Assembly: GCA_003697105.1 (NCBI GenBank)
Contig: RFFQ01000185.1
Span: 1-53,206 of the forward strand
Length of the DNA stretch: 53,206 nt
Direction: 5' to 3'
From: Gemmatimonadota bacterium
GTDB lineage: Bacteria; 4572-55; J002
The notes under the pieces: model-generated
The model's input: the letters and a program-made list of their open reading frames with translations, nothing else
What the model was told of the DNA's origin: nothing
The model's database searches: none
Translations under genes and position numbers: made by a program
In this document: piece after piece, positions 24,490-50,644 of the stretch
Numbering within the stretch: the first letter of the stretch is position 1
Layout: the number at the start of each line of letters is the position of its first letter

Positions 24490-24518
24490 TTGACACCTTT
24501 TAACATCTCTGGTAAGAT
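24490..24518 (+). promoter_or_regulatory. Putative sigma70 promoter of the large ATPase gene
   Basis: TTGACA-17 bp-TAAGAT with TGn extension; the TTG used as ORF-track start is the -35 box. Confidence 0.7.
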
Positions 24519-24588
24519 CAATAAGGACTATGTTTGGATTTTCGTGTTGGTTATAGGATCGATTTTGTTAGCTTTTAAGGAGGAGGCA

Positions 24589-27500: not shown

Positions 27501-28932
27501 TAAAAGCGCGTTACAAGAAAAAACGGAGGAGACCACTACCCTCCAAAAACGGTTAGATGAATTAGAAGCTCAGGTGGAAACGCTCATGCAAGTGCCGGAA
27601 GGGACTCACATGATTCAATCCACGGATGAGCCGGATTATCGCGATTTTACTGCCGAAACGGAAGTACCTCCTTCTGCGCCATCGGTTGAAGCGGATTTAT
27701 TTGATGCGCCGCTCGATACTTCTCCCCTTAAAGAGACTTCGAGTGATTTTTTTGAAGACCATACCGGGTTTGAAGAACAAAATCTAACCGAGGATTATGA
27801 TTTTGAACCGGCGGCTTCGACGCCATCCGATACCATTGAAACCGCAGATTTTGAAGAACAAGAATTAGATAGTTTTGAGATGGATGCTCCGCTAACGGGA
27901 ATCCCGGCGGAACCGGAACAGGCTTTTGAACTGGATTTTGATCCCACGTCTGGAGTAGAGGCACCCGCAAGTCCCAGTGTGGAGGAGTTAGACTTTGAAA
28001 CCGGTAGTGATTTCGGCGTTGATACCGGATCACCCGCATCATCCGCCGTTGAAGTCGCTCCGCTACCCGGAAAAGATTTTGATTTTATGTCCGATAGTTT
28101 CGCGGAGGACATGGCAGATGAACCCGATGCGCCGACTCTTACAGAACCGGCGTCATCGGCGTTTGAATTTGATGCCGAAACGGGGTTTGAAGACCTCACC
28201 GTGGGAGATACACCGGCAGAAACCGCATTTGAACCGGAACAAGACGCCGGTTTTGAAGATATTCCGATAAGTGATGATACCACCTTTGGTGAGCAAGCGT
28301 TTGAATTTGATATTACCTCCGGTTTTGAAGGAGATTCATTTGCGGCGGAAACATCTGTTGGTGATGTGGATGCAGGGTTTGAAGACCTCCCTGTAAGCGA
28401 TGATATCCTCATTGATGATTCCGGTTTTGGTCTGGATGATAGCGCTGACGTAACGGATGATCAGCCCGATACGACTTATGCCGGGGCGGCGTATGCCGAA
28501 GGCGTGGCAGACCTGGAAGAAATGGAATTTATGACCGTTGATGACCTGTTCGATCATGTGTCCGCATTCACCGAAGGACTGGTTATGTACAACGAAACCC
28601 GTGATTTTGGTGTGTTTGAACGTATTTACACAGAAATGGACCATCTGGAAACCCTAGCTCAAGTCGGTGAATTTCATTCGGTTAGTGAACTCTCCAGTTT
28701 AACCAAATCGATTTTGTACCGGCTCCATATTGGCGAGTTGGTTTTAGATGATGAACTGTTGGATGCACTTCATGATGCCGCCGAAGCGTTGACCAATTTG
28801 ATTTCCGGATTGATCGGCGAAGAAGATATTGACGATGAATCAATTATGCAGGCGATTCGGGAGCGATTCCGCGATGTACTGGCAAATTATGACACCGGTG
28901 AAGATGATTTTGAAGATTTAGTGGTAGGATAA
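24589..28932 (+). CDS. STAND-type P-loop ATPase with TPR repeats, long coiled coil, acidic repeats and C-terminal HPt-like helical domain
   Basis: AGGAGG RBS; NPYVTGTP..FYGRE, Walker A GQRRIGKTS, Walker B VTFDEYD, LTAGHPYFTQ; TPRs (AIEDYRRALKANPD); Q/E/L heptads; D/E-rich GFED repeats; CheA-P1-like end. Confidence 0.85.
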   Translation: MSNLVNPYVTGTPLTSENAFYGREDIFQFIENALQNPSQNLIVIYGQRRIGKTSILNRLPHRLAGTDCHVVSCSLMGKAHYSTSQILAHIARTIAETVAGIDLPVEASFRQEDYFRREFLPAVFDHLSSSRLLVTFDEYDEFGTEPLQLPNSAYRTLFPYLQTLLQSEKRLVLLFALGHRIEELPPLHHGFFKSALVKVVPRLSPDEARRLISQAVSEVFTYDTSALKLIWKLTAGHPYFTQLIGSEVFKLAQREGLSIINADHVHSVLPAAMESGEAALAWMWDGLSRSERIVFSAMAHAADEDGVATLQDIRSSLKTYHIRLLETEISNAPKHLTEIGMLEAVSEDTYRFIVEFLRGWVFFKYPLENIHRNIDRENQRANRYFENAREAHLDGEFELAIEDYRRALKANPDHLGARLGLAQALYELGDYRDAIVEYNTAYQLDAQAAKDGLISAQLKYATQLEGKQNQTEAIELYHQVLDISPHERRAISRLSAIWMSQARSALLNNHFDEAMRHAQQVLEIDPDNLIVQQLMDEIKAQQKQYQIKQLANQIDRLQTEKNWESLQSLYRQLIDLEPDNPIWSESLADVEQEIRLGQLYQEAKTAHDNEEWARAEALWAQLYREKTTYVGHDGIETAILFAQAILSRRGNLLPSGMSSEQIQELNAQIAQLETENATLRQEYNQAQTQLEQLTRENRHLNGRITSLEQTEHHLAELQTTVTRLTQERDEALSRKAAVEEQLAELTAKVEQLTTENATLTSQTQQRDEWELRVQELETELAERTTERDQLQAAKFELEQRLQTAGTQQQRLEELTQVLQSVTAERDTAQEQQHTLQQQISELQQAQETGVATQTQLTTELETLKTRAAQMEDALNAAMTEQKELRDQLEQKTAELQALQSSSNQVAVLQTQLQEKQTEIDTLHQRILQLQPLQALLDQKSHEIEQLQAEIQALKTADAEEKTNYENQVVSLKSALQEKTEETTTLQKRLDELEAQVETLMQVPEGTHMIQSTDEPDYRDFTAETEVPPSAPSVEADLFDAPLDTSPLKETSSDFFEDHTGFEEQNLTEDYDFEPAASTPSDTIETADFEEQELDSFEMDAPLTGIPAEPEQAFELDFDPTSGVEAPASPSVEELDFETGSDFGVDTGSPASSAVEVAPLPGKDFDFMSDSFAEDMADEPDAPTLTEPASSAFEFDAETGFEDLTVGDTPAETAFEPEQDAGFEDIPISDDTTFGEQAFEFDITSGFEGDSFAAETSVGDVDAGFEDLPVSDDILIDDSGFGLDDSADVTDDQPDTTYAGAAYAEGVADLEEMEFMTVDDLFDHVSAFTEGLVMYNETRDFGVFERIYTEMDHLETLAQVGEFHSVSELSSLTKSILYRLHIGELVLDDELLDALHDAAEALTNLISGLIGEEDIDDESIMQAIRERFRDVLANYDTGEDDFEDLVVG

Positions 28933-33992: not shown

Positions 33993-36284
33993 TCATGTTT
34001 TGGCAAATTTAGTGGCTAACTCATTGTCAATCACATAGATACAAACTTCTTTAGCTCCCTGTTCTGTGTAGGCATATTTGGTACAAAAATTTTCAATAAG
34101 GTAACTCACGTCATCGCGGATACGCTTATCGTGGGCTTTAAACGCATCGGTATTGTAGTCTTTAATCGCTTGCCGGAAATTCTCATTGTCAAGGAACGGA
34201 TCCAGCGCTTTTTCTTTCAGATTGTAAACGTAGCGATCATATAAAGATTGGAATAGCGCGGTTTCGTTTATCGATTTACCTTCGGTCATGATTTCCTGAG
34301 TTAAGGTCTGGGTGGTGTACTCTTTTTGGGTTGTTTGGCGGAACGATTGGCGGGTTTCCCGGCTGACATTTGCTCCGAGCAAGCGGTTTTCGATGCTTTC
34401 CAGAAAGGATTCCGTAATTTCCAGTTTTTCGCCGGTATAAATGCATGTTTCGGTGGCGCCGATTTCAAAATTAGTCGCAAATATGTAATTTTGAATATCT
34501 TTGGCGATACGATCCTCGTTATAGTAATAGAGTGATTCCTTGACTTCTTGCAAAACGGCGTAGTCATACATCCGGACCAGCGAATCTAGGAAGCCTTCTG
34601 GGATGAGCGCACTGAGGTCTTTGCGGGTTTTGGTGAAAAAGTCGTACAACGCAGACATATTGATCAGGCGGTCTTCACGGGCATAAGTGGAGTAAAATTG
34701 GTTAAAAATCTTGATAGAATCTCTTCCTGATAAGCCGCTCTTACCTTCGGTTTCGGATTCTGTGATCACACTGCGCCGGCGTTTCGCCGTGAACCGGTTA
34801 CGGTCTTCTTCGGTTAGCCAACCGGGGATATGGCCGGTAAAGATTTCCATTTTCAGCAAAAGCAGGTTTTCATCACAATAGAGGCGATATTTTTTGGGGT
34901 CACCAATCCATTCGATCAGGGCATCGGAATGCTTATTAAGGCGCGTGGCGATGATGACCCGGGCGAAGTTGTGTAACACACGTGGTAAGAAATTTCGGTC
35001 GATGTATTTCCCAAAAATATTGCGGTAGATTTCCACTTCCGTGTTTAGATCAAGCACATAATTGATATTGATGTACTCGATCCGGTCAGAAAATGACTGG
35101 AAATCTTCAATTGTTTTTTTGTCTTCGGGATTCATCAAGGCGATAAAGAGTGAAGTCACATTTTCTTCAATTTCACCGACTTTGTGGACACCTTCGCTGA
35201 TGATGTTGTGCAATTCGAGCAGGCGGTCCACATTGTGTGATTTTACATCCATCAGGGCATAGATGCCGTTGTTGGTCTTAGCGTAGCGAGAATAAATATA
35301 TTTTACCTGATTGCTGTCCCGAAAAAGCGTATTGATCTGGTTTTGAAGCATGGGGTTGGTATGAATGTGTTCCTTACTGGGTTTATCACCCGGATTGAAC
35401 ACACTAATTCCCTCACCTAATCGCCGGTTGTGCATGTAAGGACGGACATAAATTGCCTCAAAAACCTTTTGGGGACTTTTGAGTTTATTCAAAAGCGAGT
35501 GATACAGCGAGGTGCAGATAGTGCATGCGTTATCCCGGAAGACCCAGTTATACTCTTTATCGGTAAATAGATGAAACTTAAATTCGTTATTTTCCAATAG
35601 ATGATCGAAAAAACCTCGTCGGAGTTCTTTCGGGATCATTAGTAGCGGGTGGTCATGGGAAGGACATGGAATTTCAATGTAATATTCTGACATAAATGAT
35701 CCTGCCATGGGCGGCATGATGTCATTAGAGGACATGGGATCGGCACTGAAATCTGTGAGTTGCTGTGCCAAAGGTTTTCGATCGGCTTCAGTGAAACGGT
35801 TTACCATCTGGCGGTCGATTCGCCAGACGGTTTCGTAGCGTATTCCGGCATCTGTGCGAGTATATTCCTCAAATTTCCGTAATAAGTTGTTGAGAAATGT
35901 ACTCTTACCGCACCCGTAAGGTCCTTCAAAAATATAAAGTTTATTTTGTTGCGCGCCCCGTTTAAGGGCATCCACATGGTTGACAAGCCGGTTTGCAAAA
36001 AGCCGGTCTGCAAAAAACGGATTATCAGACCCTTCCACAAAGAGCCGGTTGCAATCATAAAAGACAAAATGAATCGATTCGGGGTCGTTAGGATACTCAT
36101 CAACACCTTCGGAGAGATACGTCTTGATCATGTCGTGGAAAACCTGAAACACATTACGGATGGTGGCTTGCGGTTTTTCCAACAAAATCTTTAGAAAATC
36201 CTGAAACGAGATCGGGAAACGCTGCCCTCGTTCATTCACACTCTGATCAAGGTATTGAATAGCATTGTTGATATGGTCGCTCAT
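33993..36284 (-). CDS. PrkA/YeaG-family AAA+ protein, divergent paralog
   Basis: Walker A GPYGCGKS, CPSHDHPL, EGKSGLSGR, C-terminal KYAYTEQGAKEVC.YV. Confidence 0.8.
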   Translation of the reverse strand: MSDHINNAIQYLDQSVNERGQRFPISFQDFLKILLEKPQATIRNVFQVFHDMIKTYLSEGVDEYPNDPESIHFVFYDCNRLFVEGSDNPFFADRLFANRLVNHVDALKRGAQQNKLYIFEGPYGCGKSTFLNNLLRKFEEYTRTDAGIRYETVWRIDRQMVNRFTEADRKPLAQQLTDFSADPMSSNDIMPPMAGSFMSEYYIEIPCPSHDHPLLMIPKELRRGFFDHLLENNEFKFHLFTDKEYNWVFRDNACTICTSLYHSLLNKLKSPQKVFEAIYVRPYMHNRRLGEGISVFNPGDKPSKEHIHTNPMLQNQINTLFRDSNQVKYIYSRYAKTNNGIYALMDVKSHNVDRLLELHNIISEGVHKVGEIEENVTSLFIALMNPEDKKTIEDFQSFSDRIEYININYVLDLNTEVEIYRNIFGKYIDRNFLPRVLHNFARVIIATRLNKHSDALIEWIGDPKKYRLYCDENLLLLKMEIFTGHIPGWLTEEDRNRFTAKRRRSVITESETEGKSGLSGRDSIKIFNQFYSTYAREDRLINMSALYDFFTKTRKDLSALIPEGFLDSLVRMYDYAVLQEVKESLYYYNEDRIAKDIQNYIFATNFEIGATETCIYTGEKLEITESFLESIENRLLGANVSRETRQSFRQTTQKEYTTQTLTQEIMTEGKSINETALFQSLYDRYVYNLKEKALDPFLDNENFRQAIKDYNTDAFKAHDKRIRDDVSYLIENFCTKYAYTEQGAKEVCIYVIDNELATKFAKT

Positions 36285-36298
36285 GAAAATCGTTTTAA

Positions 36299-36467
36299 TT
36301 TAGGGTTTAGGGATTAGGGATCAGGATTTAGGGATTCGGATTTAGGGATTAGGGATCAGGATTTTAGAATTTAGGGATTAGGGTTTAGGGGTTCATGTAA
36401 TTCCCAAACTCCCGAACTCATCAAACTCCCCAACTCCCGAACTCGTAAAACTCCCGAACTCCCGAAC
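36299..36467. repeat. Two adjacent short tandem repeat tracts: (T/A)TTAGGG-type heptamers (36299-36391) and AACTCCCG-type octamers (36399-36467)
   Basis: About 13 degenerate TTTAGGG/ATTAGGG/ATCAGGA units followed by about 8 AACTCCCG-like units, filling the spoVR-prkA spacer. Confidence 0.9.
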
Positions 36468-38081
36468 TCACTTGAGTATCCGGCGTCCTAACCGGCGGTC
36501 ATGCATAGTGTACAGTACGTGTTCCCATTGGATTTGGGGTTCTTCATCGTCATCGGAGTCGGAGATAGAAGCTACTTCATGGGTTTCTAACTGGACAGGT
36601 CCTCCCCACAAGAATTCGACCCCGATCATCGTGTTTTTGATAAATTCCGTGACCAGAGGTTTTCCTTCAAAATGATGGATCAGATAGAGGGTTTCTTCAT
36701 CACCTTTTTCGGGATCGACTTCGATGAATGGGGGGTGATAAAGTGAATTTAGCAACATTCGTTTGTAATCTTCGGCATTCCGGCTCTGGACGTAATATTC
36801 CCATACCATACGGTCTTCGTTCAAGCGTCGTCCTGCCACGAACAGGTTGTTTTGAGTTACGAAATCTTGGTCCACAAAGGTATCAATAAAAGTATCATCG
36901 CAGAAGGATTCACGCACTTTGAAGATGAATTTCCGTCCTTCATGGGTGTGTTGGTTATAGTGTTCACGTTCGTAGCGGTCGGTCAATTTTAGATAATCCC
37001 AGGAGCGTTTGCCGCGATTGACATAATCCTCGATGTAATAAAAGAGGCGCAATCCCAAGGCATACGGATTCAGACCGACTCGAGGTAAAGCCGTTACCCC
37101 TGCGTTGATACGGGCAAAATCGACTTCGTGCCCGCGAATCCGATCATCCTGCATAAATAACGTTTCATGCCAATAACTTGCCCAACCTTCATTCATAATT
37201 TTGGTACGAATTTGGGGTTGGAAGAAGATCGACGTTTTACGGACAATCTCCATCACGGATTTCATCCACAGGTTGTCTTCTTTGTTTAAAAATTCAGAAT
37301 GATCCATCAGATATTGGAAGATATCTGTCTTGCGCTGGGGCTTTTCTTGCAAATGTTTTTTAAAAAGGGCTTCAAATTCAGGATATTTTTTATCAACCTC
37401 CGTGAAGAAGGTCTGCACACCCAAGTTATCGTGGGCACTTGTTACTTGATTATAGCGATTGATTTCCTCCAGATACTCGCTGATTTTCACCTGCTTGATG
37501 TCCTGCAGAAACCGGTCAAAATAAAAATCAAGGCGTTGGGTATAGCGGGTTTTGTGCGGGCGGTCTGTACGGGAAAGTTCCGTAAAAAACCCCACCAGAT
37601 TATCCAGCCCGCGCGAAAATTCGATCACATAATCGACCCAACGTCCTTTTTCGGAGCGTAATTTGGCAATAAGCCGTTTATCGGAAAGGGCTCTTCCGGT
37701 AAAATCATAATCCCAGGTGTGGCTAAAAAAGAGGTTATTCTGGAAGAAGTCAATGTGTCCTAACACGTGGTAAAAGATCATCACATTGAGCCAATCGGGG
37801 TTATTATCATTATAAAACGAGATTGCCGGGCGGGTGTTAATCACCGTTTCGTAAGGGTTATGGGGGTACAACTCATACTTCCCTTTTTCTCGCAGGACTT
37901 CTACATCATGTACCCAATAGTCGTACAGGGTTGGGATCATATATTTGGGAGAGAGTTCCAGCAAGTCGCGGTTTGTGACGATATACTCCAGACTTTCGTC
38001 CTCAAAGCGCAAGCCGGCATCCCGAGCCCGTTCTTTACACCCTTCCATAATTTTTTTGGTGTGTTGATCGATAAGTTCCAT
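36468..38081 (-). CDS. spoVR: SpoVR/YcgB family protein
   Basis: YETVINTRP, HVLGHIDFFQNN, PQIRTKIMNEGWASYWH, NPYALG. Confidence 0.92.
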   Translation of the reverse strand: MELIDQHTKKIMEGCKERARDAGLRFEDESLEYIVTNRDLLELSPKYMIPTLYDYWVHDVEVLREKGKYELYPHNPYETVINTRPAISFYNDNNPDWLNVMIFYHVLGHIDFFQNNLFFSHTWDYDFTGRALSDKRLIAKLRSEKGRWVDYVIEFSRGLDNLVGFFTELSRTDRPHKTRYTQRLDFYFDRFLQDIKQVKISEYLEEINRYNQVTSAHDNLGVQTFFTEVDKKYPEFEALFKKHLQEKPQRKTDIFQYLMDHSEFLNKEDNLWMKSVMEIVRKTSIFFQPQIRTKIMNEGWASYWHETLFMQDDRIRGHEVDFARINAGVTALPRVGLNPYALGLRLFYYIEDYVNRGKRSWDYLKLTDRYEREHYNQHTHEGRKFIFKVRESFCDDTFIDTFVDQDFVTQNNLFVAGRRLNEDRMVWEYYVQSRNAEDYKRMLLNSLYHPPFIEVDPEKGDEETLYLIHHFEGKPLVTEFIKNTMIGVEFLWGGPVQLETHEVASISDSDDDEEPQIQWEHVLYTMHDRRLGRRILK

Positions 38082-38097
38082 ATTATAACCTTTGGAT

Positions 38098-39474
38098 TTA
38101 TGAAATCAGCGAGCGAATCCCTTCAATCAAACGGCTTTCATTGGCGTCATTTGGCACAATATCCAAGCGGAGCAAATCTGGGTGTTCTGCCAGCAGTCCG
38201 GATCGCTTCAGGTATCGTTCCACTTCAGAGTTATAGCTGCTGGAACGGCGCCCCCGGTCGGCGATTGTGATTCCCACCCGGTTGGCGTAAGTGAGCATCT
38301 GTTTTAATTCGGGTAGGGATTCTTTACCGTCGGTATCCCAGTCGTCACCATCCGTGCCGTGGAAAATGTAAATATTGTAATCTCGGGCGAGGCTTTCATC
38401 CGCTACGATTTTATTGACCAACCGGTAGGCCGAGGCAACCTTTGTTCCACCGGCAACACGGGAATTATAGTAGGTATAAAAATCTTTGACCTCGGTGGCG
38501 TCCGTGTCGTGCAGAATAAACCGGGTTTCCACCTGTTTTTCGTACTGGTAAAGCAGCCAACTGTAGATCAACACATGCTGCGAGACGACCAATTCGGTGG
38601 GTTTACCAAACATCGAACCGGAATAGTCCCGCACAAAAAAGACCAATGCTTGAGATTCGTAATCCTGTTCTTTGGAAAGAATCCGGTAAATTTTATCATC
38701 TGGGGCAATCAAAAATGAGGTAGAGTCGATGTTTTCGACATCTTTCACATTACCCAGATGGATATTGGTTTCAAGGACTTTTTTCAGGGTTGCTTTTTTG
38801 TCTAAAATTTGGCCAAATCCGCGGTGACGGTCGGTCATTTCATAGGTGAAGCGGGTCAATACGCGCTTTTTGCCTTTATCTTTTAGATTTGGCAACTCGA
38901 ATTGTTCGGTTAGGATCCGCCCGAGGTCATAGGCGTTGGATTCCATCTCATGGGGTCCGGCGGAGCCTTGCCCCGGACCGGCACCGGAGCCTCCATCTTG
39001 CGGGCGAACCGGTTGTTCACCAATGACTTCACCTTCCTCACCGGTACCGGAGCCGCCAAAGGTCTCATCATCTTCCGGTGGACGGATGGAATCATGAATA
39101 AATTTTTCTTCCACTGTGGTGGGGACAATAACAATTTTCTCTTTACCCCCTTTGCCGGGTTTGATCAGGCGTCCGACCCGAATTTTACGCGGGAAGCCAT
39201 CTTTTTCGCGTTGTTTGTCCCGTTCCAGTAATTCATCAATTGAGCTTAGATACACATGATAATTTCCATGGGGGGTTGTCATTTGTTGCAAAAAGGTGAG
39301 GTCATTATAGTCATAAATCCCAAGGGTACGTTGCGTTGCCAACGCGGGCAAATCCGGTTCGATAACCTCATGGGTTAGACTCCCCTGTAATTCGGTTAGG
39401 ATGTGCTTCTCTTGTTCGGGGGTCAGCCGCTCTTCCATTTTGAGGTGTTGGTAATATTCGTGGGCTGAACTCAT
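38098..39474 (-). CDS. YeaH/YhbH (DUF444) vWA-like protein
   Basis: G.G.GEEGEVIG, LPNLKDKG, MIDAS-like RDYSGSM, GGTKVASAY, YNIYIFHGTDGDDW. Confidence 0.9.
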   Translation of the reverse strand: MSSAHEYYQHLKMEERLTPEQEKHILTELQGSLTHEVIEPDLPALATQRTLGIYDYNDLTFLQQMTTPHGNYHVYLSSIDELLERDKQREKDGFPRKIRVGRLIKPGKGGKEKIVIVPTTVEEKFIHDSIRPPEDDETFGGSGTGEEGEVIGEQPVRPQDGGSGAGPGQGSAGPHEMESNAYDLGRILTEQFELPNLKDKGKKRVLTRFTYEMTDRHRGFGQILDKKATLKKVLETNIHLGNVKDVENIDSTSFLIAPDDKIYRILSKEQDYESQALVFFVRDYSGSMFGKPTELVVSQHVLIYSWLLYQYEKQVETRFILHDTDATEVKDFYTYYNSRVAGGTKVASAYRLVNKIVADESLARDYNIYIFHGTDGDDWDTDGKESLPELKQMLTYANRVGITIADRGRRSSSYNSEVERYLKRSGLLAEHPDLLRLDIVPNDANESRLIEGIRSLIS

Positions 39475-39531
39475 GGATGTTTCCCCTTAATTGGTGTTGT
39501 GGGGGGCAGGGGTTGCCGTGTCAGATTGGGT

Positions 39532-41592
39532 TTACTTTTCATCTTCTTGGGTGCAAAAATATTCAATGGTTTTTTGAGCGCAGGTACGGCAGTAACCCAG
39601 TTTATCAAGCATGGTTTCGATCATCCGGTCATATAATTTTTGGTTTTCTTCATTGGTTCGATTTGCCAACGCGCCGATCAGGCTCCCCGCGCCGGCAATA
39701 TCGGACTTCAAGCGGACGTCGGTTACGGCTTTGACCAGTTCTAGGTTGTCCATAAAGTCATAATTGGGATCCACCGATAGTTTTTGTCCGTAAATTTTGC
39801 GGATAGAGGTGCGGAAGGTCTCCCGCCGTTCTTGAGTTTTTAGCCCTAATCGCTCTTCTACGCTTTGGATGTATCGTTCATCAATTTTGAGCGCTCGTAA
39901 TTCCCCGGTTTGGGGGTCTTTGTATTTCCACATTTTGTCGGCGCCCAAATTATCCGCATCAATTCCGATGATCATGTTGACATAGCTCATTACATCTTTG
40001 CGGATGGCGTGGGGTTCATCCATATAGGCGTTGAACATCTCGGTCATGATTCGTTCGCGGTATAATCCTTTAGCGATCTTCAAATCTTCCAAATACTTAA
40101 TGCGGTCATTGGCTTCGGAGACATAATCCAAAATGATGCGTTCAATCGCTTTGAAAATGTCGTAGGCAAACATGCACTGACCTTCATTGGTTTCGGAACT
40201 TTCGACTAATAACTGGATGGCACGACCCAAATTCCGTTGTCCCAGCCCTTTTTGCCCGAAACGTTTGGTAATATCAGGATTTTGATTTAGGGTATCGATC
40301 ACTTCCGCCAACGTTTTGATGCTTTTTTCACCGGCAACTTCACCGGCGGCGAGTTTAAGCGTTTCCACCGGAGTTAATTTTTCGGTATGGGGAAGGCGGG
40401 TGAGGACTACGGCGACCGAGGCGGCATAGTTGAGGTTCGGGTCTTGGTGAAGCAAATCGCGATTGAAGGTTGTCCGGGTTTCGCTTCCGATGGCGTAATC
40501 CGTTAAATCTTTTTGCAACTTGTAGTTGGTATTGTGGGACACATAGCAAATCCGGCAGCGATCCACAATGGGGGCTTCTTCTTTTTCCGCTAAAAAGCGA
40601 TTAAATTCCGAGTTGTTACTGGTGGCGATAATCAACGTATCAATGGGCCACTTGAAGCCATCTAACTCAATGGTGCGGTTTTGAATAACCCCTAAATAGA
40701 CTTGCACCAAATCCTTTTTGTTTTTGTAGATTTCATCGCTGAAGTGGATTCCACCTCCCGCGACCCGTGCCAGAGCACCGCGCCGCAAATCAAACCGGTA
40801 GGGGTTATTGGTATCCGTGATGTGAAGCAAGCGTTGGATGGATTCCTCTCCCAGCAAGTCCACGGCGGAAGAGGTAATTTTATCTTTCGCAGAGTATTTA
40901 CCGGTGACCGTTCCCAGACTTTCGGTGAGGGGCACCGGCACAACCTCTACAAATTCCAACATCTTGTCAATTTCATCGCCGGTATATTCCCGGATATCAT
41001 TCCAGATATAATCGCTACAGGCGCCCAACGGGCGGTAATTTTGGTACATCTGTTCCAACTGGGCATCGGAAAATCCAATGGTTTTACTGAGATAGGTGAG
41101 GTTATCGTCCCGGAACGGGAACAGATTCATTGCCAGAATCATCGGGTCTTCATATGTTTGGGACTCAATGGTTTTGATACGCCCGTAATTACCCAGTTTA
41201 TCCATGTTGACAAAGCGAAAGGTGTACTTGCGGTTTTTCTCATCGTATAGAAAGCGGCGGTACGCCGAGCAAAGAAATTCCACAAAAAAGGTCTTGCCGT
41301 TCCCCGGTTCTCCGACGAACACAAACGCCATTTCCGAAGAAGACCCTCCTTCGGCGGCATCTTTTACATAAGAGACAAAACTATTAATTTCCTCATACAT
41401 GCCGATGATGTGCTTTTTGCCTTGCCGGAAAAGACCGAAATCGTAGGTTGTTTTGCCATTGACGACCACTTTTTCCACGCCAGATTCCAGAATCATACGG
41501 GAAATGGCTTGAAAGGCATTTTCAAACGCTCGTTCCCCTTTTTTGACTTGATCTAAGTGATAATGCAGTGTTTTAAAGGAATTATTTGCCAT
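39532..41592 (-). CDS. prkA: PrkA/YeaG-family AAA+ 'serine protein kinase'
   Basis: Walker A GEPGNGKT, Walker B IHFSDE, IIATSN, VDRC, C-terminal LGYCRTCAQKTIEYF; first gene of the prkA-yeaH-spoVR operon. Confidence 0.87.
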   Translation of the reverse strand: MANNSFKTLHYHLDQVKKGERAFENAFQAISRMILESGVEKVVVNGKTTYDFGLFRQGKKHIIGMYEEINSFVSYVKDAAEGGSSSEMAFVFVGEPGNGKTFFVEFLCSAYRRFLYDEKNRKYTFRFVNMDKLGNYGRIKTIESQTYEDPMILAMNLFPFRDDNLTYLSKTIGFSDAQLEQMYQNYRPLGACSDYIWNDIREYTGDEIDKMLEFVEVVPVPLTESLGTVTGKYSAKDKITSSAVDLLGEESIQRLLHITDTNNPYRFDLRRGALARVAGGGIHFSDEIYKNKKDLVQVYLGVIQNRTIELDGFKWPIDTLIIATSNNSEFNRFLAEKEEAPIVDRCRICYVSHNTNYKLQKDLTDYAIGSETRTTFNRDLLHQDPNLNYAASVAVVLTRLPHTEKLTPVETLKLAAGEVAGEKSIKTLAEVIDTLNQNPDITKRFGQKGLGQRNLGRAIQLLVESSETNEGQCMFAYDIFKAIERIILDYVSEANDRIKYLEDLKIAKGLYRERIMTEMFNAYMDEPHAIRKDVMSYVNMIIGIDADNLGADKMWKYKDPQTGELRALKIDERYIQSVEERLGLKTQERRETFRTSIRKIYGQKLSVDPNYDFMDNLELVKAVTDVRLKSDIAGAGSLIGALANRTNEENQKLYDRMIETMLDKLGYCRTCAQKTIEYFCTQEDEK

Positions 41593-41871
41593 GGTAATTT
41601 CCCCTTTCGGTTGGGGTGGAAGATTCACGAGGTGATCGTAAAATATAATGACGCAAATTTGAGGCTGAATTGCAGAAAAATAGTATTAACCCGATCTTTT
41701 ATGCTGTTTTTTGCCGTACCGGCGGTGGGTTTTAGCTAAATGGCGCGCTCTAAAATATAATCAATCTAGGTTTACTTTCAAAGAGGTATTGATCGATTGT
41801 TGTGATTTCATCACAATATTTTCATAATTTTCACCGGAGACGCCGTCTCCAAACTGGGTTTATCCTAGACC

Positions 41872-41900
41872 TTGACTTTTCCGTTATATTGCGCTATATG
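41872..41900 (+). promoter_or_regulatory. Possible sigma70 promoter of the ccsA-like operon
   Basis: TTGACT-17 bp-TATATG. Confidence 0.4.
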
Positions 41901-41956
41901 TTGAATAATATTGGGTCTTACAGAACATTTTTAAGTGAGGAACAGGACTTGTGGGA

Positions 41957-42775
41957 ATGGTACTTACCTTTGGTTTTTGGTTTATTGTAGGGCTGTATGC
42001 CGCCGCATGTGGATTTTATTGGCGAGGGTTTCTGTACAAACAGGAAAAGGGTTTACAACTCGCGCAACGTTGGTTTTGGGGAGCGATTCTGGTTCATTTG
42101 CTCACGCTGATCCTGCTTAGTTATGACTTAAAACGGTTACCGGTCGCCACGCTGAGTGAGGCATTTACCACCTTTGTCTGGTTGACCGGCACCATTTATT
42201 ATGTGCTGGAACGCCGTCTGAAAGACCATTCCATTGGTGCGTTTATTTTGCCACTGTTGTTAATTATGCTCTTGATCTCCAATATCACCTTTGACCGCAA
42301 CGAACCCATCGCTGAGGTGTTGAAAGATGTCCGGTTTGAAGTTCACGTTCTGACGTTACTGTTGGCGTATGGGGCATTTGCGCTCTCTTTTATTGCCAGT
42401 TTACTGCACACGTTGCTCTCCCGGGAACTGCAGAAGCATGACTTGGGAATGTTCTATAGTCGCTTGCCTTCACTTCCATTCTTTGACCGGATCAGCAATT
42501 CCGCTGTGGACATTGGGCTGATCTTTCTCACTATCGGTTTGATATTAGGTGTGTACAATGCCGCATTAGTTTGGCAGGATAAGCTCTTTACGGACCCCAA
42601 AATTTACTCCGCATTTTTAAGCTGGATCATCTACGGGATTCACTTTGCCGGGCGGCGATTTGGGAATTGGTACGGTCAACGTGCCGCTACAATTTCACTG
42701 ATCGGCTTTGGTTGGCTTATTTTTTCGTTCGTCATTATTTCCATGTATTTCTCCAATCTTCATCATTTTGTATAA
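41957..42775 (+). CDS. CcsA/HemX-like (cytochrome c assembly family) membrane protein
   Basis: About 8 TM; LVH, LPVATLSEAF, EVHV..LLAYGAFALSF, SRLPSL..FD, GLIFLTIGLILG, W...TDPK (short HemX/YpjD-type version of the WWD motif), GNWYGQRAA, C-terminal His. Confidence 0.88.
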   Translation: MVLTFGFWFIVGLYAAACGFYWRGFLYKQEKGLQLAQRWFWGAILVHLLTLILLSYDLKRLPVATLSEAFTTFVWLTGTIYYVLERRLKDHSIGAFILPLLLIMLLISNITFDRNEPIAEVLKDVRFEVHVLTLLLAYGAFALSFIASLLHTLLSRELQKHDLGMFYSRLPSLPFFDRISNSAVDIGLIFLTIGLILGVYNAALVWQDKLFTDPKIYSAFLSWIIYGIHFAGRRFGNWYGQRAATISLIGFGWLIFSFVIISMYFSNLHHFV

Positions 42776-42790
42776 GCGATTAATGCTCCG

Positions 42791-44743
42791 ATGCCGCTAG
42801 CAGCCTATCATTTTCAATTTAATGACCCCCAGCCGGTGACCTCGCCGTTACCCCAAACGATGATGAAAGACCTGAATGCCCAACTTGAGGTCGCCGAATG
42901 GCTCTGTTTGCGTTATGCCGGTAATTGTGAGATGTTCCTGATCGAGGCTGAACCTTTGGGAACGGAAACGGTATGGAGTCTCCTCCAAGAAACCGGCATT
43001 GTGCCCAAAGGCAAACCGGAAGAGGCTCAATACCGGTTTCATCGGGAAGCTATCCACTACTTTTACGCCATAACAACCGGTATCATCGGGCAAACCCGGG
43101 GCAAACGCCTGCTGGAAATTCTGCACGAAGCCTATGCCCAAGCTGTGGAAATGACCTATGCGGGACCGATTCTTCACCGGCTTTTTCATCGGGGGGTGTG
43201 GCTTCATGAAAAAGTCAGGCTGGAAACGCGCTTTTTCCGCTTTGCGGTTGATGAAGAGAGCGTCCTGCGGGAGCTTGCCGGAAAGGTGTTGGGGCACTTA
43301 ACCCAAGCGGTGACCTACATCATGGGTTACCAACCGGAGGTAGTTTATCAACTGGAAGAATTACGGCAAGGTGGCTGCCGAAAATTTGTTTTTGTGGGGG
43401 ATGAGCCGGTGGATGACGTGGTGATCCGGGTTTCAGGGGAAGTCCGGTCTCCTCAAGCTCTGCGGGTATTACCCGTAGAGACGGATATTTTGTTGATTTG
43501 TGAGGGTGCACCGCCCATGTTCAAGCAACCCCAAGTGATTCAGGAACGGATGAACCGGCGGCACAACGCACCCCTCTTCATTTTAGACCAAACCGGCGGC
43601 TATTTTGAGCCAAAAACCCTCAAAAAACTGTATAATGTCTATCATTATCAACCACAAGATTTAACGCCTATTATCCGGTATAACCGGCAGGAGCAACGCG
43701 CTGAAGCCGCGCGAATCGAACCGTGGATTCGGGAAGAAGTCAGTGCGTTCTACGACTGGTACCGGACTGAAGAACGATTCCAATTTGCTGGTATGATCGG
43801 CGCAAACCCGCAGATGCGCCGCATATTTGAACTCATTTCCCGCATTTCCCAGACCGATATTACCGTACTCATCGATGGTGAGAGCGGTACGGGTAAGGAA
43901 CTGGTTGCCCGTGCCATCCATGACCTCAGTGCCCGGCGGGATAAACCGTTCATTGCAGTCAATTGTGGTGCCATTCCGGAAAATCTGCTGGAAAGTGAAC
44001 TTTTCGGACACATGAAAGGCGCGTTTACCGGGGCGACTGCCAGCAAGCAAGGCTTGTTTGAAAGTGCCGATCAAGGCACCATCTTTTTGGATGAAATCGG
44101 CGAATTACCGGCATCATTACAAGTGAAACTATTGCGGTTTTTGCAAGAAGGCGAACTGAAACGAGTCGGCAGTAATGCGACCTTGCAATTGGATGTGCGC
44201 GTGCTTGCCGCAACAAATAAACACCTAGAAAAACTCGTTGAAAATGGGGAATTTAGGAGCGATTTATATTATCGCTTAAATGTCATCCAACTCACCTTAC
44301 CGCCTTTGCGGGAACGGCAAGAAGACATCCCCTTGCTGGCACAACACTTTCTCCGTAAATATGCCCGCAAATTAAATAAAGATGTGGCGGAACTTTCGCC
44401 AGAAGCAATGGAAGCACTGCTTCACTATCGCTGGCAGGGCAATGTTCGTGAATTGGAAAATGTGATGGAACGGGCGGTCGCCCTGACCGTGGGGAAGTCC
44501 ATTTCGGTGTACGATCTGCCGCCGGCGTTGCAAAACGTCAATCATCAAACTAGCTCTCCGATGGAAACTGACGCCAAAGCACGTTTGACCTTGAAAGAAG
44601 TGGAAAAAAAGTATATTTTGGAAACTTTGGATTTATTCGATTGGAATTACGACGAAGTCTGTCGCCAACTTGGGATTGGGCGCACGACGCTCTGGCGTAA
44701 ATTACGGGAGTACGGCGTCAGTGAATCCAGTACAAAGACATGA
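42791..44743 (+). CDS. Sigma54-dependent enhancer-binding protein with N-terminal degenerate glutamyl-tRNA reductase (HemA)-like domain
   Basis: C-terminal half: GESGTGKE, NCGAIPENLLESELFGHMKGAFTGA, FLDEIGE, RSDLYYRLNV, WQGNVRELEN, LGIGRTTLWRKL (Fis HTH). N-terminal ~330 aa align by eye with HemA. Confidence 0.9.
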   Translation: MPLAAYHFQFNDPQPVTSPLPQTMMKDLNAQLEVAEWLCLRYAGNCEMFLIEAEPLGTETVWSLLQETGIVPKGKPEEAQYRFHREAIHYFYAITTGIIGQTRGKRLLEILHEAYAQAVEMTYAGPILHRLFHRGVWLHEKVRLETRFFRFAVDEESVLRELAGKVLGHLTQAVTYIMGYQPEVVYQLEELRQGGCRKFVFVGDEPVDDVVIRVSGEVRSPQALRVLPVETDILLICEGAPPMFKQPQVIQERMNRRHNAPLFILDQTGGYFEPKTLKKLYNVYHYQPQDLTPIIRYNRQEQRAEAARIEPWIREEVSAFYDWYRTEERFQFAGMIGANPQMRRIFELISRISQTDITVLIDGESGTGKELVARAIHDLSARRDKPFIAVNCGAIPENLLESELFGHMKGAFTGATASKQGLFESADQGTIFLDEIGELPASLQVKLLRFLQEGELKRVGSNATLQLDVRVLAATNKHLEKLVENGEFRSDLYYRLNVIQLTLPPLRERQEDIPLLAQHFLRKYARKLNKDVAELSPEAMEALLHYRWQGNVRELENVMERAVALTVGKSISVYDLPPALQNVNHQTSSPMETDAKARLTLKEVEKKYILETLDLFDWNYDEVCRQLGIGRTTLWRKLREYGVSESSTKT

Positions 44744-47639: not shown

Positions 47640-48734
47640 ATGAACATTTTTGTTCGGATTATCAAAAAAATATTGCCCAAAGGGGGGTTCTATCGCCCGA
47701 AACTACTGACGGTGTTGCTGGTTTCGGTGGGGTTAAATGTTGCCTTTGGCATCGCCTTCTATTTTGCCGAGCGGCATCTTCAGGAAGGGTTGACCCTGAC
47801 CGATGCTATCTGGTGGGCAATGGTCACGATGACCACGGTTGGATACGGCGATATTTATGCCCAAACCGCCGTCGGGCGATTTTTAATTTCGTATCCCTGT
47901 ATGGTGATCGGAATCGGTATTATCGGCTATCTGGTCGGAATTGTGGCGGAGTCGGTTTTGGAATCGATCTCGCGCCAAAAAAAGGGGTTGAAAGCAATTA
48001 CCATGAAAGACCATATCATCATTTGTAACTGCCCGCAGGTTGAAAAAGTGGTGCGGTTGGTGGACGAATTATCTTATGACCCAACCGGAAAAGACCGGCA
48101 ATTTGTCTTGATTACCGAACGATTTGAGGAACTTCCGGAAGCGTTACATCATGCGAACATCAAATTTGTCAAAGGCGACCCCACCAAAGAGGATGTTTTA
48201 CAGCGGGCGAATATTTTGAAATGTGCCGGCGTGTTTGTTCTGGCAGAGAACCCGTCAGATGTGGCTTCAGACCACAAAACGTTTGCTATCGGTACCATCA
48301 TCGAAATGATTGAAAAAGAGCACCAAGTCCCCATCAAAACCGTCGTGGAACTGGTCACAAAAGAAAACCTGAAAATGATGCAGCGCACCCACGTGGATGG
48401 GATCGTCTCGGTGGACGGCATTATCAATTGCCTGATGGTGCAGGAGTTCCTCGACCCCGGGATTCATGATGTGGTGCATGAACTCATCAGTAACAAAACC
48501 GGTAGTGAATTTTATACCTTAACGACCCGGTTGACGGGGTTCACGGTGGGTGATATTCAAAAAGCCACCTGTGATGCGCCGCAGAACGTGCAGTTGATCG
48601 GCGTGATTCGCCACGGGGAACATCTGCTAAACCCTGAAAAACAGTTTAAAATTGAAGATGGCGACCGGTTGGTCATCCTTGCCCCCCAGCGTACTGATTT
48701 TGAACGGATTGAGCAAAAGATGTTAGGGTACTAG
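47640..48734 (+). CDS. 2-TM potassium channel with RCK (TrkA-N/TrkA-C) domains
   Basis: DAIWWAMVTMTTVGYGD selectivity filter, KDHIIIC, VKGDPT..LQRAN, C-terminal TrkA-C (LIGVIR...LNP...IEDGDRL). Confidence 0.93.
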   Translation: MNIFVRIIKKILPKGGFYRPKLLTVLLVSVGLNVAFGIAFYFAERHLQEGLTLTDAIWWAMVTMTTVGYGDIYAQTAVGRFLISYPCMVIGIGIIGYLVGIVAESVLESISRQKKGLKAITMKDHIIICNCPQVEKVVRLVDELSYDPTGKDRQFVLITERFEELPEALHHANIKFVKGDPTKEDVLQRANILKCAGVFVLAENPSDVASDHKTFAIGTIIEMIEKEHQVPIKTVVELVTKENLKMMQRTHVDGIVSVDGIINCLMVQEFLDPGIHDVVHELISNKTGSEFYTLTTRLTGFTVGDIQKATCDAPQNVQLIGVIRHGEHLLNPEKQFKIEDGDRLVILAPQRTDFERIEQKMLGY

Positions 48735-48758: not shown

Positions 48759-49406
48759 TTACGCCCGGATTCGCCGCCGGGAGGTGATCCCCTGTTTTTT
48801 GAGCCCGACGTTTTGCAAGACACGCTCGCAAATCGCCCGGTATGTCTCTTCTACCCCCACGCCTTGTTGGGCAGAGGATTCAAATACGTTTTTGAGAGCA
48901 AGCGCCGGATTTAGGGCATTTCGCAGGGTGAATTTGGGGATGTTATGCGGTAGGTCGATTTTATTGACCTGTAAAATTAGAGGGGCTTCCAATTGAAGCT
49001 CATCCATTGCCTGTTGCAATTCTTGGAAACTTTCAATATTGTCATTTAAACGATCCGCTTGGGAGTCCGCTACAAAGACGATGCCATCCACTCCACGCAA
49101 CATCTGGCGCCGGGTGGCGGCAAATGCCATCTGCCCGGGTACACTGTACGTTTGGAATTTGACCTGAAAGCTTCCGACAGTCTCCTCCAGCGGTAAAAAA
49201 TCAAAAAAGCGGGTGCGACCGCTGTACTGGCTTTGTTCCGTGTCCATATTAATCGCCAAGGCGATCAATTTTCCGGTTGGGTTGTACATTGATTGCGGTA
49301 CTTTTTCAGCTAATTGTTTTAGGTTGGTGGTCTTACCACTCAGACCCGGACCATAATAAACGATTTTGCAAATGACCTCTTTCTTCTGGTAGTTGATCAT
49401 CGACAT
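48759..49406 (-). CDS. MglA-family small GTPase
   Basis: CKIVYYGPGLSGKTTNL, RTRFFDFLPL, SVPGQ, LRGVDGIVFVADSQ, NKID, SAQQGVGV. Confidence 0.92.
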   Translation of the reverse strand: MSMINYQKKEVICKIVYYGPGLSGKTTNLKQLAEKVPQSMYNPTGKLIALAINMDTEQSQYSGRTRFFDFLPLEETVGSFQVKFQTYSVPGQMAFAATRRQMLRGVDGIVFVADSQADRLNDNIESFQELQQAMDELQLEAPLILQVNKIDLPHNIPKFTLRNALNPALALKNVFESSAQQGVGVEETYRAICERVLQNVGLKKQGITSRRRIRA

Positions 49407-49462
49407 TCGTATTTCCCCCCCAACTGAGTTCCTTAAATACCACCTCACACGTTTTACATCCG

Positions 49463-50644
49463 ATGAATGAACATAATGCGCAAGTGGTGATTGATCAAGA
49501 TAAAACGACACGCCTTTCGATTTGTATGACGGTCATCGGAGAATTAACCCATGACCAGCGGGTTTTCCGCGAGGCACACTGTTTACAGCAGGCGGGGCAT
49601 CAGGTGCATATCATCGGTGGTACGAGCAATCCGAACAAAATTCCAGAAGATTGGGGCGACATCACCATTGAATATCTCCAATTACGGGCGGCGCGGGGTA
49701 AAAAAATGTACGCAGAGCATGCGCTCAAGCTGTTGCACCGGCTGGCGACCCTCGATATGGATGTGATTCATTGTCACGATCTGGATACACTGCTTGCCGG
49801 GGCCATCATGGCCAAATTACGGGGTAAAAAGTTGATTTATGATAGTCATGAACTTTTCCCGGAACAAGGTTCGCTGGCAAATCGCCCGCGCGAGCGCAAA
49901 ATATGGGGGATGTTGGAACGGCTTCTGATTCACCTGCCGGATTGGATTATTACGGTCAATGACTCGTTGGCAGAAATCATGGCAGAGCGATACCATGTTG
50001 AACCACCGACCCCCATTCGCAATATCCCGGACGGACAGGTTAGGGAACGAACCAACCGGTTGCGGCAAAAAACCGGTCTCTCTCCGGCGCACAAAATCGT
50101 CCTTTACCAAGGACAAATGATGCCCGGACGCGGGTTGTTCACCCTGATTGAGAGCATCCTGAAGTTGCCAGATGAGTATGTGTTGGTCTTGTTGGGTAAA
50201 GGGGGGTTAATGCCGGAACTCCGCCGGCGTGCCGCCTTGCATCCCCCAAAAATTCGGGTTCTGGATGCGGTGCCTTTTGCCGAATTGCTCTCGTACACCG
50301 CATCTGCCGACATCGGTATATGCTTGATCGAAAACATCAGCACCAGCTATTATTACGCGTTGCCCAACAAATTTTTTGAATACATGATGGCAGGTCTTCC
50401 GGTGATTGCGAGTAATTTCCCGGAATTTGAACGCATCTTTAAAATATTCCCGTTTGGCGTTACGGTTGACCCGAGTGACGCCGACGCCGTGGCTCAGGCA
50501 ATCCGTGCCATTGGAGAGAATCCGGCGTGGCAACAGGAACTTCAAACCATCGCTCGATCCGCGACAACAGTTTATAATTGGCAGATGGAGCAGAAAAAAT
50601 TATTGGATATTTATAATCGTCTGTATTATACTTCTCAGAAATAA
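49463..50644 (+). CDS. GT4 (GT-B) family glycosyltransferase
   Basis: DQRVFREA, IHCHDLDTL, IYDSHELF, LYQG, ADIGI, LPNKFFEYMMAGLPVIASNFP, YNW. Confidence 0.92.
   Translation: MNEHNAQVVIDQDKTTRLSICMTVIGELTHDQRVFREAHCLQQAGHQVHIIGGTSNPNKIPEDWGDITIEYLQLRAARGKKMYAEHALKLLHRLATLDMDVIHCHDLDTLLAGAIMAKLRGKKLIYDSHELFPEQGSLANRPRERKIWGMLERLLIHLPDWIITVNDSLAEIMAERYHVEPPTPIRNIPDGQVRERTNRLRQKTGLSPAHKIVLYQGQMMPGRGLFTLIESILKLPDEYVLVLLGKGGLMPELRRRAALHPPKIRVLDAVPFAELLSYTASADIGICLIENISTSYYYALPNKFFEYMMAGLPVIASNFPEFERIFKIFPFGVTVDPSDADAVAQAIRAIGENPAWQQELQTIARSATTVYNWQMEQKKLLDIYNRLYYTSQK

Follow-up and report, generated by a model that had tools for sequence, protein, structure and literature searches.

In a contig of 53,206 nucleotides from a Gemmatimonadota bacterium (RFFQ01000185.1 of assembly GCA_003697105.1; the whole contig is referred to as the window hereafter), one gene (42791..44743, forward strand) encodes a 650-aa protein, the N-terminal half of which is a homologue of glutamyl-tRNA reductase (GluTR, the hemA product) devoid of its catalytic motifs, and the C-terminal half of which is a sigma-54 activator. 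The gene immediately upstream (41951..42775, forward strand), which stops 16 bp before it, encodes a 274-aa HemX-type membrane protein. The explanation that best accounts for the observations as a whole, to which we assign a probability of about 0.6, is that the two proteins constitute a HemX-gated switch responding to the heme status of the cell. The parts of this reading differ in strength. We are nearly certain that the dead-GluTR activator is paired with HemX, and it is quite probable that hemA or genes of heme-type uptake are controlled in the relatives through a palindrome, TTTTCA-N3-TGAAAA. That HemX mediates the sensing of heme, with activation on heme shortage, is an even bet. The earlier note on this DNA, made from the letters alone, had proposed a dead HemA scaffold repurposed as a sigma-54 sensor tied to heme. 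Homologues, structure and the regulon support this core; the binding of Glu-tRNA or NADPH, for which it had suggested tests, is unlikely.

The N-terminal region of about 330 residues is a true GluTR homologue. The NCBIfam hemA model, TIGR01035, matches residues ~24-328 at an E value of 4.5e-17 (model positions 29-337 of 416), with a score of 62.2 bits, which is below the curated cut-off of 209.55 bits. When residues 1-330 were compared by phmmer with 1.84 billion representative sequences, 1398 matches were obtained at E ≤ 1e-3: about 15 clusters of 620-680 aa, matched in their N-terminal parts, ranked first, followed by proteins of 420-450 aa, which is the length of canonical HemA. A profile prepared only from six sequences of the fusion family matched the structure 1GPJ (M. 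kandleri GluTR) at E 1.6e-26 (positions 39-328 against 39-318), covering almost all of its catalytic and NADPH domains, and the Arabidopsis GluTR at 3e-14. For an AlphaFold model of residues 1-330 (pLDDT 91.3, pTM 0.82), the alignment of which included 7 canonical HemAs, the best Foldseek match was again 1gpj (E 4.8e-16, TMq 0.76, 334 columns). The profile and fold comparisons suggested earlier for this region thus came out in favour of GluTR. In a model of the whole protein, built from 16 fusion proteins only (pLDDT 86.0), the N-domain has the same secondary structure as in the first model; a Foldseek search with this full-length model gave only sigma-54 activators among the matches listed, and so offers no independent view of the N-domain fold. 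A word-index protein search with residues 1-330 returned the query itself as the sole match among 2658 candidates.

Three parts can be distinguished in this region. Residues 1-147 (42791..43231, forward strand) correspond to the catalytic domain of GluTR, as seen from TIGR01035, the alignment, the AlphaFold secondary structure, and a GlutR_N match to residues 25-146 at E 2.4e-4. Residues 148-287 (43232..43651, forward strand) resemble the Rossmann-type NADPH domain without its GxGxxG loop and contain ELAGKVLG at 161-168. Residues 288-324 (43652..43762, forward strand) form a single long helix in both AlphaFold models, equivalent to the "spinal" helix of GluTR, and this helix leads directly into the AAA+ domain. 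Canonical HemAs run on into a dimerisation domain, whereas the family alignment ends about 8 residues beyond W323, at the spinal helix, where AAA+ starts. Among the Pfam families that had been named as a check, Sigma54_activat and HTH_8 were found; GlutR_N remained sub-threshold (21.3 bits, or 24.5 bits in the genome scan, against a cut-off of 27), and GlutR_dimer gave no match in the activator.

The state of the functional motifs was examined in a MAFFT alignment of 25 family N-domains and 7 canonical HemAs. The correspondence with HemA, motif by motif, that had been noticed by eye was borne out there, and so were the replacement of the catalytic Cys by Ala, the loss of TCNR and the breakage of the NADPH loop. 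In the column of the catalytic Cys, Cys occurs in 7/7 canonical HemAs and in 0/25 family members; the window's protein carries Ala43 there (42917..42919, forward strand), where STCNR has become RYAGN. T-C-N-R is present in the canonical HemAs and gone from all 25 family members. A clear contrast is also seen for GE.QI, GxGxxG and VPR[DN], each of which is found in 7/7 canonical HemAs and in 0/25 family members, the glycine loop reading IMGYQPE in the window's protein. The elements kept in the family are GP.L..LFQRG.WL.EK.R.E, ELA.KIFG, M..R.N.PL, YNV..Y and the helix Asn (N298). In the family alignment, the N-domain shows neither a Cys nor a His that is invariant. Judged by these residues, the domain has nothing left of what is expected of a GluTR enzyme apart from the fold. 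With neither the catalytic nor the nucleotide motifs left in any of the 25 members, this domain is unlikely to bind NADPH or Glu-tRNA.

These data bear on a reading in which the dead-GluTR domain would itself be the ligand sensor, for heme, an intermediate, Glu-tRNA(Glu) or NADPH, and HemX would be an accessory, delivering heme or providing stability. Both GluTR domains retain their fold, modelled at high confidence, several of the helices lining the pocket are conserved (e.g., GP.L..LFQRG.WL.EK.R.E), Salmonella GluTR is reported to bind heme via Cys170 (PMC5801465, cited throughout from an excerpt), and 8/25 family members have a Cys three residues past the lost catalytic Cys; all of these would suit such a sensor. 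Nevertheless, we consider it rather improbable: TCNR, the glutamate-side motif GE.QI, GxGxxG and VPRD are each lost in 25/25 members, the N-domain lacks an invariant Cys or His, and the presence of HemX in 23/24 loci, together with a predicted contact through the most conserved residues of both families (described below), argues for a protein signal.

The C-terminal half, in which the earlier note had recognised an intact enhancer-binding protein, showed every motif listed there, with the coordinates of GAFTGA being exact, and Pfam agrees. The reading frame is uninterrupted over 42791-44743. Sigma54_activat (PF00158) matches residues 335-501 (43793..44293) at E 8.5e-74, the AAA+ lid domain (AAA_lid_14, PF25601) residues 507-588 (44309..44554) at E 4.7e-31, and the Fis-type HTH_8 DNA-binding domain (helix-turn-helix, HTH; PF02954) residues 600-641 (44588..44713) at E 5.5e-14, all on the forward strand. 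Walker A (GESGTGKE, residues 363-370, 43877-43900), the GAFTGA loop (residues 410-415, 44018-44035) and Walker B (FLDE, residues 432-435, 44084-44095) are all invariant among 16 aligned family members, as is the HTH helix GIGRTTLWRK (columns I629-K637). Foldseek matched the AAA+ part to NtrC1, ZraR and FleQ at E 1e-27 to 5e-32, and its core is 46-56% identical to those of NtrC1, ZraR, FleQ, FlrC and LuxO. The window's genome (G000), in which a check for rpoN had been proposed, encodes it (Sigma54_DBD, 214 bits, contig C10), along with 19 sigma-54 activators in all. With the AAA+ motifs, the HTH and rpoN in the genome, the protein has the sequence features of a bacterial enhancer-binding protein (bEBP), and it is predicted to be a working one.

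The fusion is not confined to the window. A search of 185,579 species genomes yielded 24 further loci, and the fusion is encoded in 24/24 of them. The hosts are Calditrichia/Calditrichaceae (Calditrichota), candidate division KSB1, and metagenome-assembled genomes labelled only "bacterium" or otherwise. A maximum-likelihood tree was computed from the 25 family N-domains, 19 hemA genes from the loci and 37 canonical representatives (every third phmmer match of 400-470 aa, the remaining ones being left out). In this tree, 25/25 family N-domains lie on one side of a branch with an SH-aLRT of 100, far from the 56 canonical HemAs, and form a separate long-branched group with two deep clades, in which the N-domains are 19-37% identical; this topology indicates a single origin of the family N-domains. 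Two members bear the public names "AAA family ATPase" and "sigma 54-interacting transcriptional regulator". The architecture was not found in the literature searched by full text, a set outside which lie about 1.7 million PMC articles and the subscription journals, and among the papers listed in the first of these searches none combined "glutamyl-tRNA reductase" with sigma-54 terms.

An assembly chimera or a decaying pseudogene, which the earlier note had named as what might undo its interpretation, has a negligible probability. As the fusion occurs in 24/24 related loci from independent assemblies, besides the roughly 15 clusters of 620-680 aa, and as the frame is intact and the AAA+ motifs are invariant, the gene is neither a chimeric or frameshift-derived join nor a one-off remnant in decay.

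The partner gene, which had been left out of the earlier note, lies immediately upstream of the activator gene on the same strand in 23/24 family loci, the exception being L035. Its 274-aa product matches Pfam PF01578 (Cytochrom_C_asm) at E 8.9e-28 (97.8 bits; cut-off 29.9) and NCBIfam ccsB with 99.7 bits, under the cut-off of 187.6. PF01578 is shared by HemX and by CcsA, and two kinds of evidence assign this protein to the HemX type and not to the CcsA type. One is the gene order: hemX followed by hemA was found at 16/18 canonical hemA loci of unrelated genomes. Another is the better match to HemX encoded upstream of canonical hemA (BLASTP, E 6e-38 to 1.5e-8) than to the genome's other two PF01578 genes (1.3e-6 or nothing). 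Moreover, the loop motif [LMFI]-P-[SP]-L was present in 12/15 and W.G.[RK] in 11/15 HemX proteins adjoining canonical hemA, in a comparison that included 7 of the 23 family HemX-type rows, and the RLPSL and GW.G.[RK] motifs were not found in this genome's CcsA-type protein.

The invariant residues of the HemX-type family are H49, H132, H231 and H271, R171-L172-P173-S174, and G239/W240/G242/R244. The histidines in CcsA are heme ligands. The family profile aligns with the CcsA half of the CcsBA structures 25vk and 7S9Y (E 2.2e-10 and 6.6e-6), and the four invariant His fall on the CcsA His, the tryptophans of the WWD motif being lost. With four invariant His here and none in the N-domain, the HemX-type protein rather than the dead-GluTR domain would be the heme-binding partner. 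A crude hydropathy scan gave 6 strong segments; if two weaker helices are assumed, these and the K/R-rich loops are consistent with a topology of eight helices. HemX has been described as an eight-helix PF01578 protein with both termini outside, which co-localises with gtrR/hemA across phyla. In S. aureus and B. subtilis cells proficient in heme, it holds GluTR down through a mechanism that was not known; the excerpt of that source gives it no known interacting partner (PMC5801465).

A contact between the two products is supported by complex prediction. For the HemX-type protein and the dead-enzyme domain, three runs gave an ipSAE of 0.64, the best control reaching 0.30; the runs agreed in at least 88% of contacts, and the partner's pLDDT was at least 77. 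The mark of the tool was reached by 58/80 solved complexes and 2/110 mismatched pairs, a calibration that is rough here, as our own alignments were used. The predicted contacts on the HemX-type protein involve residues 30, 156-177 and 239-244, all in K/R-rich loops that we read as cytoplasmic from their composition, and include the invariant R171-L172-P173-S174 and G239/W240/G242/R244. On the sensor they involve residues 162-169 (in ELAGKVLG), 255-261 and 278-297, i.e., motifs common to real HemA. When the PDB was searched with each of the family profiles, one retrieved GluTR entries only and the other CcsBA entries only, and no entry contained both; thus, as far as these searches show, the result is not the memory of a solved complex. 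The model supports binding of the HemX-type protein to the dead-GluTR domain. A wider possibility, which we hold only tentatively and think somewhat doubtful, is that this is the general way in which HemX grips GluTR in all bacteria with a hemX-hemA pair, the cytoplasmic loops RLPSL and GWxGxRAA of HemX engaging the ELAxKIFG helix, the R.N.PL strand and the base of the spinal helix of GluTR.

It could also be supposed that the N-domain carries no signal at all and serves as a constitutive scaffold for oligomerisation or anchoring, the adjacency of hemX being functionless inherited synteny. Since the hemX-hemA order is ancestral (16/18 canonical loci), the adjacency could indeed be a leftover. 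We regard this as very unlikely, given that two deep clades have both retained the pair, that the cytoplasmic loop motifs of HemX are invariant, and that L035, the sole locus without an adjacent hemX, belongs to a genome whose hemA keeps one.

The candidate binding site emerged from the relatives. In the clade L038-L049, TTTTCA-N3-TGAAAA (≤ 1 mismatch) precedes the hemX-type gene in 11/12 loci, L042 being without it, and overlaps a sigma-70-like -10 element of the pair's own promoter. In L031, L032 and L034, the palindrome lies directly 3' of the activator gene (twice in L031); TGGCAT-N5-TTG[CA]T follows about 150-170 bp past it, and then an operon for a lipoprotein, a TonB-dependent receptor and a membrane protein. 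Canonical hemA was found in 15 of the 24 family genomes. In 13 of these 15, the palindrome (≤ 1 mismatch) stands upstream of hemA at a distance of 190-380 bp; a -24/-12-type element follows it by 111-178 bp and lies 73-220 bp ahead of the point where the hemA domain match begins. By contrast, no palindrome was found upstream of the control hemA at 0/17 loci in genomes without the fusion (an 18th control locus was left out for want of upstream DNA). The two hemA genes without the palindrome (G061 and G070) are exactly the two with their own adjacent hemX, and G070 is the genome whose activator (L035) has no adjacent hemX-type gene. The genome G052 contains 6 palindromes, vs 1 match to a reversed control pattern, and of its only two intergenic ones, one is located at the pair's promoter and the other precedes hemA.

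Activator sites in sigma-54 systems usually lie about 110-180 bp upstream of the -24/-12 promoter. Given this geometry, the simplest reading is that the dead-GluTR activator binds the palindrome. As to the putative promoters themselves, the -12 element before hemA reads TTTTTGA or TTTTTGT in 9/13 cases (the L065-L074 set) and TTGC in the remaining 4, which come from the window's clade; the former could be a lineage-specific variant.

Alternatively, the palindrome may belong to another regulator, such as an iron- or heme-responsive repressor acting on hemA, the uptake genes and the hemX-activator operons, with the activator acting elsewhere. Two observations would fit this: at the pair's promoter the site lies across a sigma-70-like -10, as an operator would, and leaves no space for a sigma-54 promoter, and the window's own locus has no such site. 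Against this, activators commonly auto-repress sigma-70 promoters, e.g., NtrC. The position of the site 111-178 bp upstream of a -24/-12-type element before hemA, and similarly before the TonB operon, its occurrence directly after the activator gene in L031, L032 and L034, its restriction to genomes with the fusion (13/15 vs 0/17 for hemA) and the invariant recognition helix of the family all speak for the activator, and another regulator is in our judgement distinctly unlikely.

We then consider the window's own genome, a 96.85% complete assembly of 199 contigs, under the reading that the activator and HemX form a heme-responsive switch. Searches of this genome for canonical GlutR_N, ALAD, porphobilinogen (PBG) deaminase, URO-D and ferrochelatase found none of them, and the best hemL match (127 bits) was far below the cut-off of 527. 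The separate intact hemA that the earlier note had suggested looking for was thus not found in the genome, nor were the other five heme-synthesis families searched. Two CcsA-type cytochrome c biogenesis genes were found (C83:11463-12044 and C197:207-857), the match on C83 holding one internal TGA and one TAG. As six heme-synthesis families were not found and two CcsA-type genes were, the organism is probably a heme auxotroph with c-type cytochromes, using heme that it cannot make.

In this genome, 50 palindrome sites (≤ 1 mismatch) and 113 TGGCAY-N5-TTG sites occur, and 2 palindrome-plus-promoter composites were found, vs 0.23 expected by chance. The composite on C189 was rejected as a target, as it lies inside a long repetitive open reading frame (ORF). 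The other, on C160, is the only intergenic pair in the genome: two adjacent palindrome sites are followed about 125 bp later by TGGCACAACCTTTGT, and after about 50 bp by the start of a 749-aa TonB-dependent receptor. The second gene of this operon encodes the genome's only above-cut-off HmuY-family protein, and the third a 242-aa membrane protein, 66% identical to the product of the third gene in the activator-adjacent operon of L032. HmuY proteins are described, in the abstract of PMC8911585, as hemophore-like partners of the TonB-dependent heme receptor HmuR. Of the 24 family genomes, 7 have a homologue of the 242-aa marker protein. The contig of G071 stops at the first gene of the operon, and in G072 and G064, the homologue stands in another context with the palindrome inside the coding sequence; these cases are uninformative. 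We slightly favour the C160 operon as the target of the activator in the window's genome, via the palindrome; the assignment is suggestive rather than secure.

The proposed mechanism can be outlined as follows. The sensor would be a GluTR paralogue with its fold kept, the spinal helix serving as a linker into the AAA+ ring domain. The eight-helix HemX-type protein would read membrane heme, and its loops (RLPSL and GWxGxRAA) would grip the dead-enzyme domain, so as to hold or destabilise the activator, much as HemX holds down the level of real GluTR in Firmicutes replete with heme. Scarcity of heme would free the activator, which would then bind tandem TTTTCA-N3-TGAAAA sites, assemble, and open a sigma-54 promoter about 110-180 bp downstream. 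The target would be real hemA in the heme-making relatives and, in the window's genome, the TonB-receptor/HmuY-like uptake operon on another contig.

Several points weigh against this scheme. The direction of control is borrowed by analogy from the Firmicutes HemX, and the complex score expresses the confidence of a model and is not a measurement. At the promoters, the -12 element of 9/13 hemA genes is TTGA or TTGT and not TTGC, which is the form in characterised sigma-54 promoters, and the two motif-less hemA genes are found with the window protein's closest relatives. The 53-kb window itself holds 0 TTTTCA-N3-TGAAAA sites at ≤ 1 mismatch, its matches to the sigma-54 consensus are not in excess (48 vs 51 expected), and nothing in it points to what this copy regulates. 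As to C160, the site carries one mismatch and a -12 of TTGT, the HmuY match covers model positions 97-157 only, the two TonB receptors (that on C160 and that of the activator-adjacent operon) are 24% identical, and with 19 sigma-54 activators in the genome the promoter could belong to another one. Finally, heme auxotrophy is read from an incomplete assembly in many contigs.

Comparison with known systems clarifies what is shared and what is peculiar. In residues ~24-328, which span the catalytic and NADPH domains and reach the beginning of the spinal helix, the activator is a homologue of the GluTRs of 1GPJ and 4N7R, and it shares with canonical HemA the elements ELA.KIFG, R.N.PL..D and N298. 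As at 16/18 canonical hemA loci, a hemX-type gene is directly upstream. Unlike GluTR, it lacks the catalytic Cys, TCNR, GE.QI, GxGxxG and VPRD (0/25), has AAA+ and HTH in place of the dimerisation domain, and scores below both curated cut-offs. With bEBPs (NtrC, NorR, XylR/DmpR, DhaR and PspF), it shares the AAA+ domain with GAFTGA, the lid, the Fis-type HTH, and, in the relatives, candidate activator sites that precede a -24/-12 promoter by about 110-180 bp. It differs from known bEBPs in having as its sensor a pseudo-enzyme, paralogous to the enzyme encoded by the gene that appears to be controlled, and in that the proposed input comes from an integral membrane protein of the HemX type. Partner proteins are known to control activators in the PspA-PspF and DhaK/DhaL-DhaR systems, and transcription factors with enzyme-derived sensor domains are also known. 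To our knowledge, there is no REC, GAF, PAS, V4R or CARF equivalent, and we know of no activator that has as its sensor a dead paralogue of the enzyme encoded by the controlled gene, gated by the membrane regulator of that enzyme.

The partner likewise stands between two known families. It resembles CcsA/CcsBA (25vk, 7S9Y) in aligning to the CcsA half with the four invariant His on the CcsA His, and differs from CcsA in its degenerate WWD motif (W..W.WD has become vwegkllld), in having no CcsB/ResB part, and in its RLPSL cytoplasmic loop, which CcsA lacks. Its RLPSL and GW.G.[RK] loop motifs are those of HemX adjacent to hemA. As in the HemX/GluTR systems of B. subtilis and S. aureus, the gene for a PF01578 membrane protein lies beside a GluTR-type gene with a heme-related output; in those species, according to the same excerpt, HemX lowers the active enzyme after transcription (PMC5801465). 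Unlike in the Firmicutes system, the GluTR-type partner here is inactive and fused to an activator, and the output would be transcription.

Other features of the window and of the family loci were also inspected. The intergenic region of 322 bp (41629..41950) between the hemX-like gene and a divergent prkA operon contains two perfect palindromes: TTGTGATTTCATCACAA (41800-41816), which has 2 occurrences in the genome, and GGAGACGCCGTCTCC (41836-41850), which is unique in it. The only other near-copy of TTGTGATTTCATCACAA is at C178:9766, just before a 265-aa ORF. Neither TTGTGATTTCATCACAA nor GGAGACGCCGTCTCC was found at the other family loci, and neither TTTTCA-N3-TGAAAA nor a -24/-12 sigma-54 promoter was seen in the 322-bp region. 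The divergent cluster (33993-41628, reverse strand) encodes a PrkA of 698 aa, a DUF444/YeaH-like protein of 458 aa, a SpoVR-like protein of 537 aa and a second PrkA paralogue of 763 aa. The prkA-DUF444-spoVR genes were rejected as a target, as they lie beside the pair in 0/24 loci and the 322-bp region has no -24/-12 site. The genes downstream of the activator (for a 292-aa protein, a DUF350 protein, a 277-aa protein and a K+ channel) are not conserved with the family.

Among the family loci, a gene for a Rieske [2Fe-2S] ferredoxin of about 110 aa directly follows the activator gene in 7 loci of the second clade (L042:9761-10105, with L043 and L045-L048 among the others) and may be a third operon member; the window has none. 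In 6 second-clade loci (L041:546-2765 and five others), a 740-aa SulP-family permease with STAS and cyclic-nucleotide-binding domains is encoded upstream on the opposite strand.

Elsewhere in the window, a class I Glu/Gln-tRNA synthetase of 474 aa (141-1565, forward strand) is encoded at a distance of 41 kb from the dead-HemA gene. Should it be GltX, it would produce the substrate used by real GluTR; the sharing of one window is probably a coincidence. A 1198-aa protein (19910-23506, reverse strand) combines a 2-oxoacid dehydrogenase acyltransferase (E2) catalytic domain with 2-oxoglutarate dehydrogenase E1, which we take to be an OdhA/Kgd-like fusion, known mainly from Actinobacteria. A 1480-aa protein (24490-28932, forward strand) has an N-terminal AAA_16 (STAND-like) ATPase and TPR repeats, and a 250-aa Ras/Arf-type small GTPase (48759-49511, reverse strand) is encoded beside an RCK-domain K+ channel (47640-48734).

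If the switch operates as proposed, it would add a new class of sensor to the sigma-54 activators, namely a pseudo-enzyme paralogue of the regulated enzyme, and would give Calditrichota and KSB1 their first transcriptional heme circuit. The module supplies a concrete interface, consisting of named HemX loops and a GluTR helix, and a built-in transcriptional reporter for the HemX-GluTR interaction. Should the predicted contact be the general grip of HemX on GluTR, the activator family would be a natural read-out of that interaction, in which the cell gauges heme through HemX acting on a decoy enzyme that drives the genes of the real enzyme or of uptake. A single regulatory unit would also have been rewired, its target being hemA where heme is made and a TonB/HmuY-type uptake operon in an apparent auxotroph.

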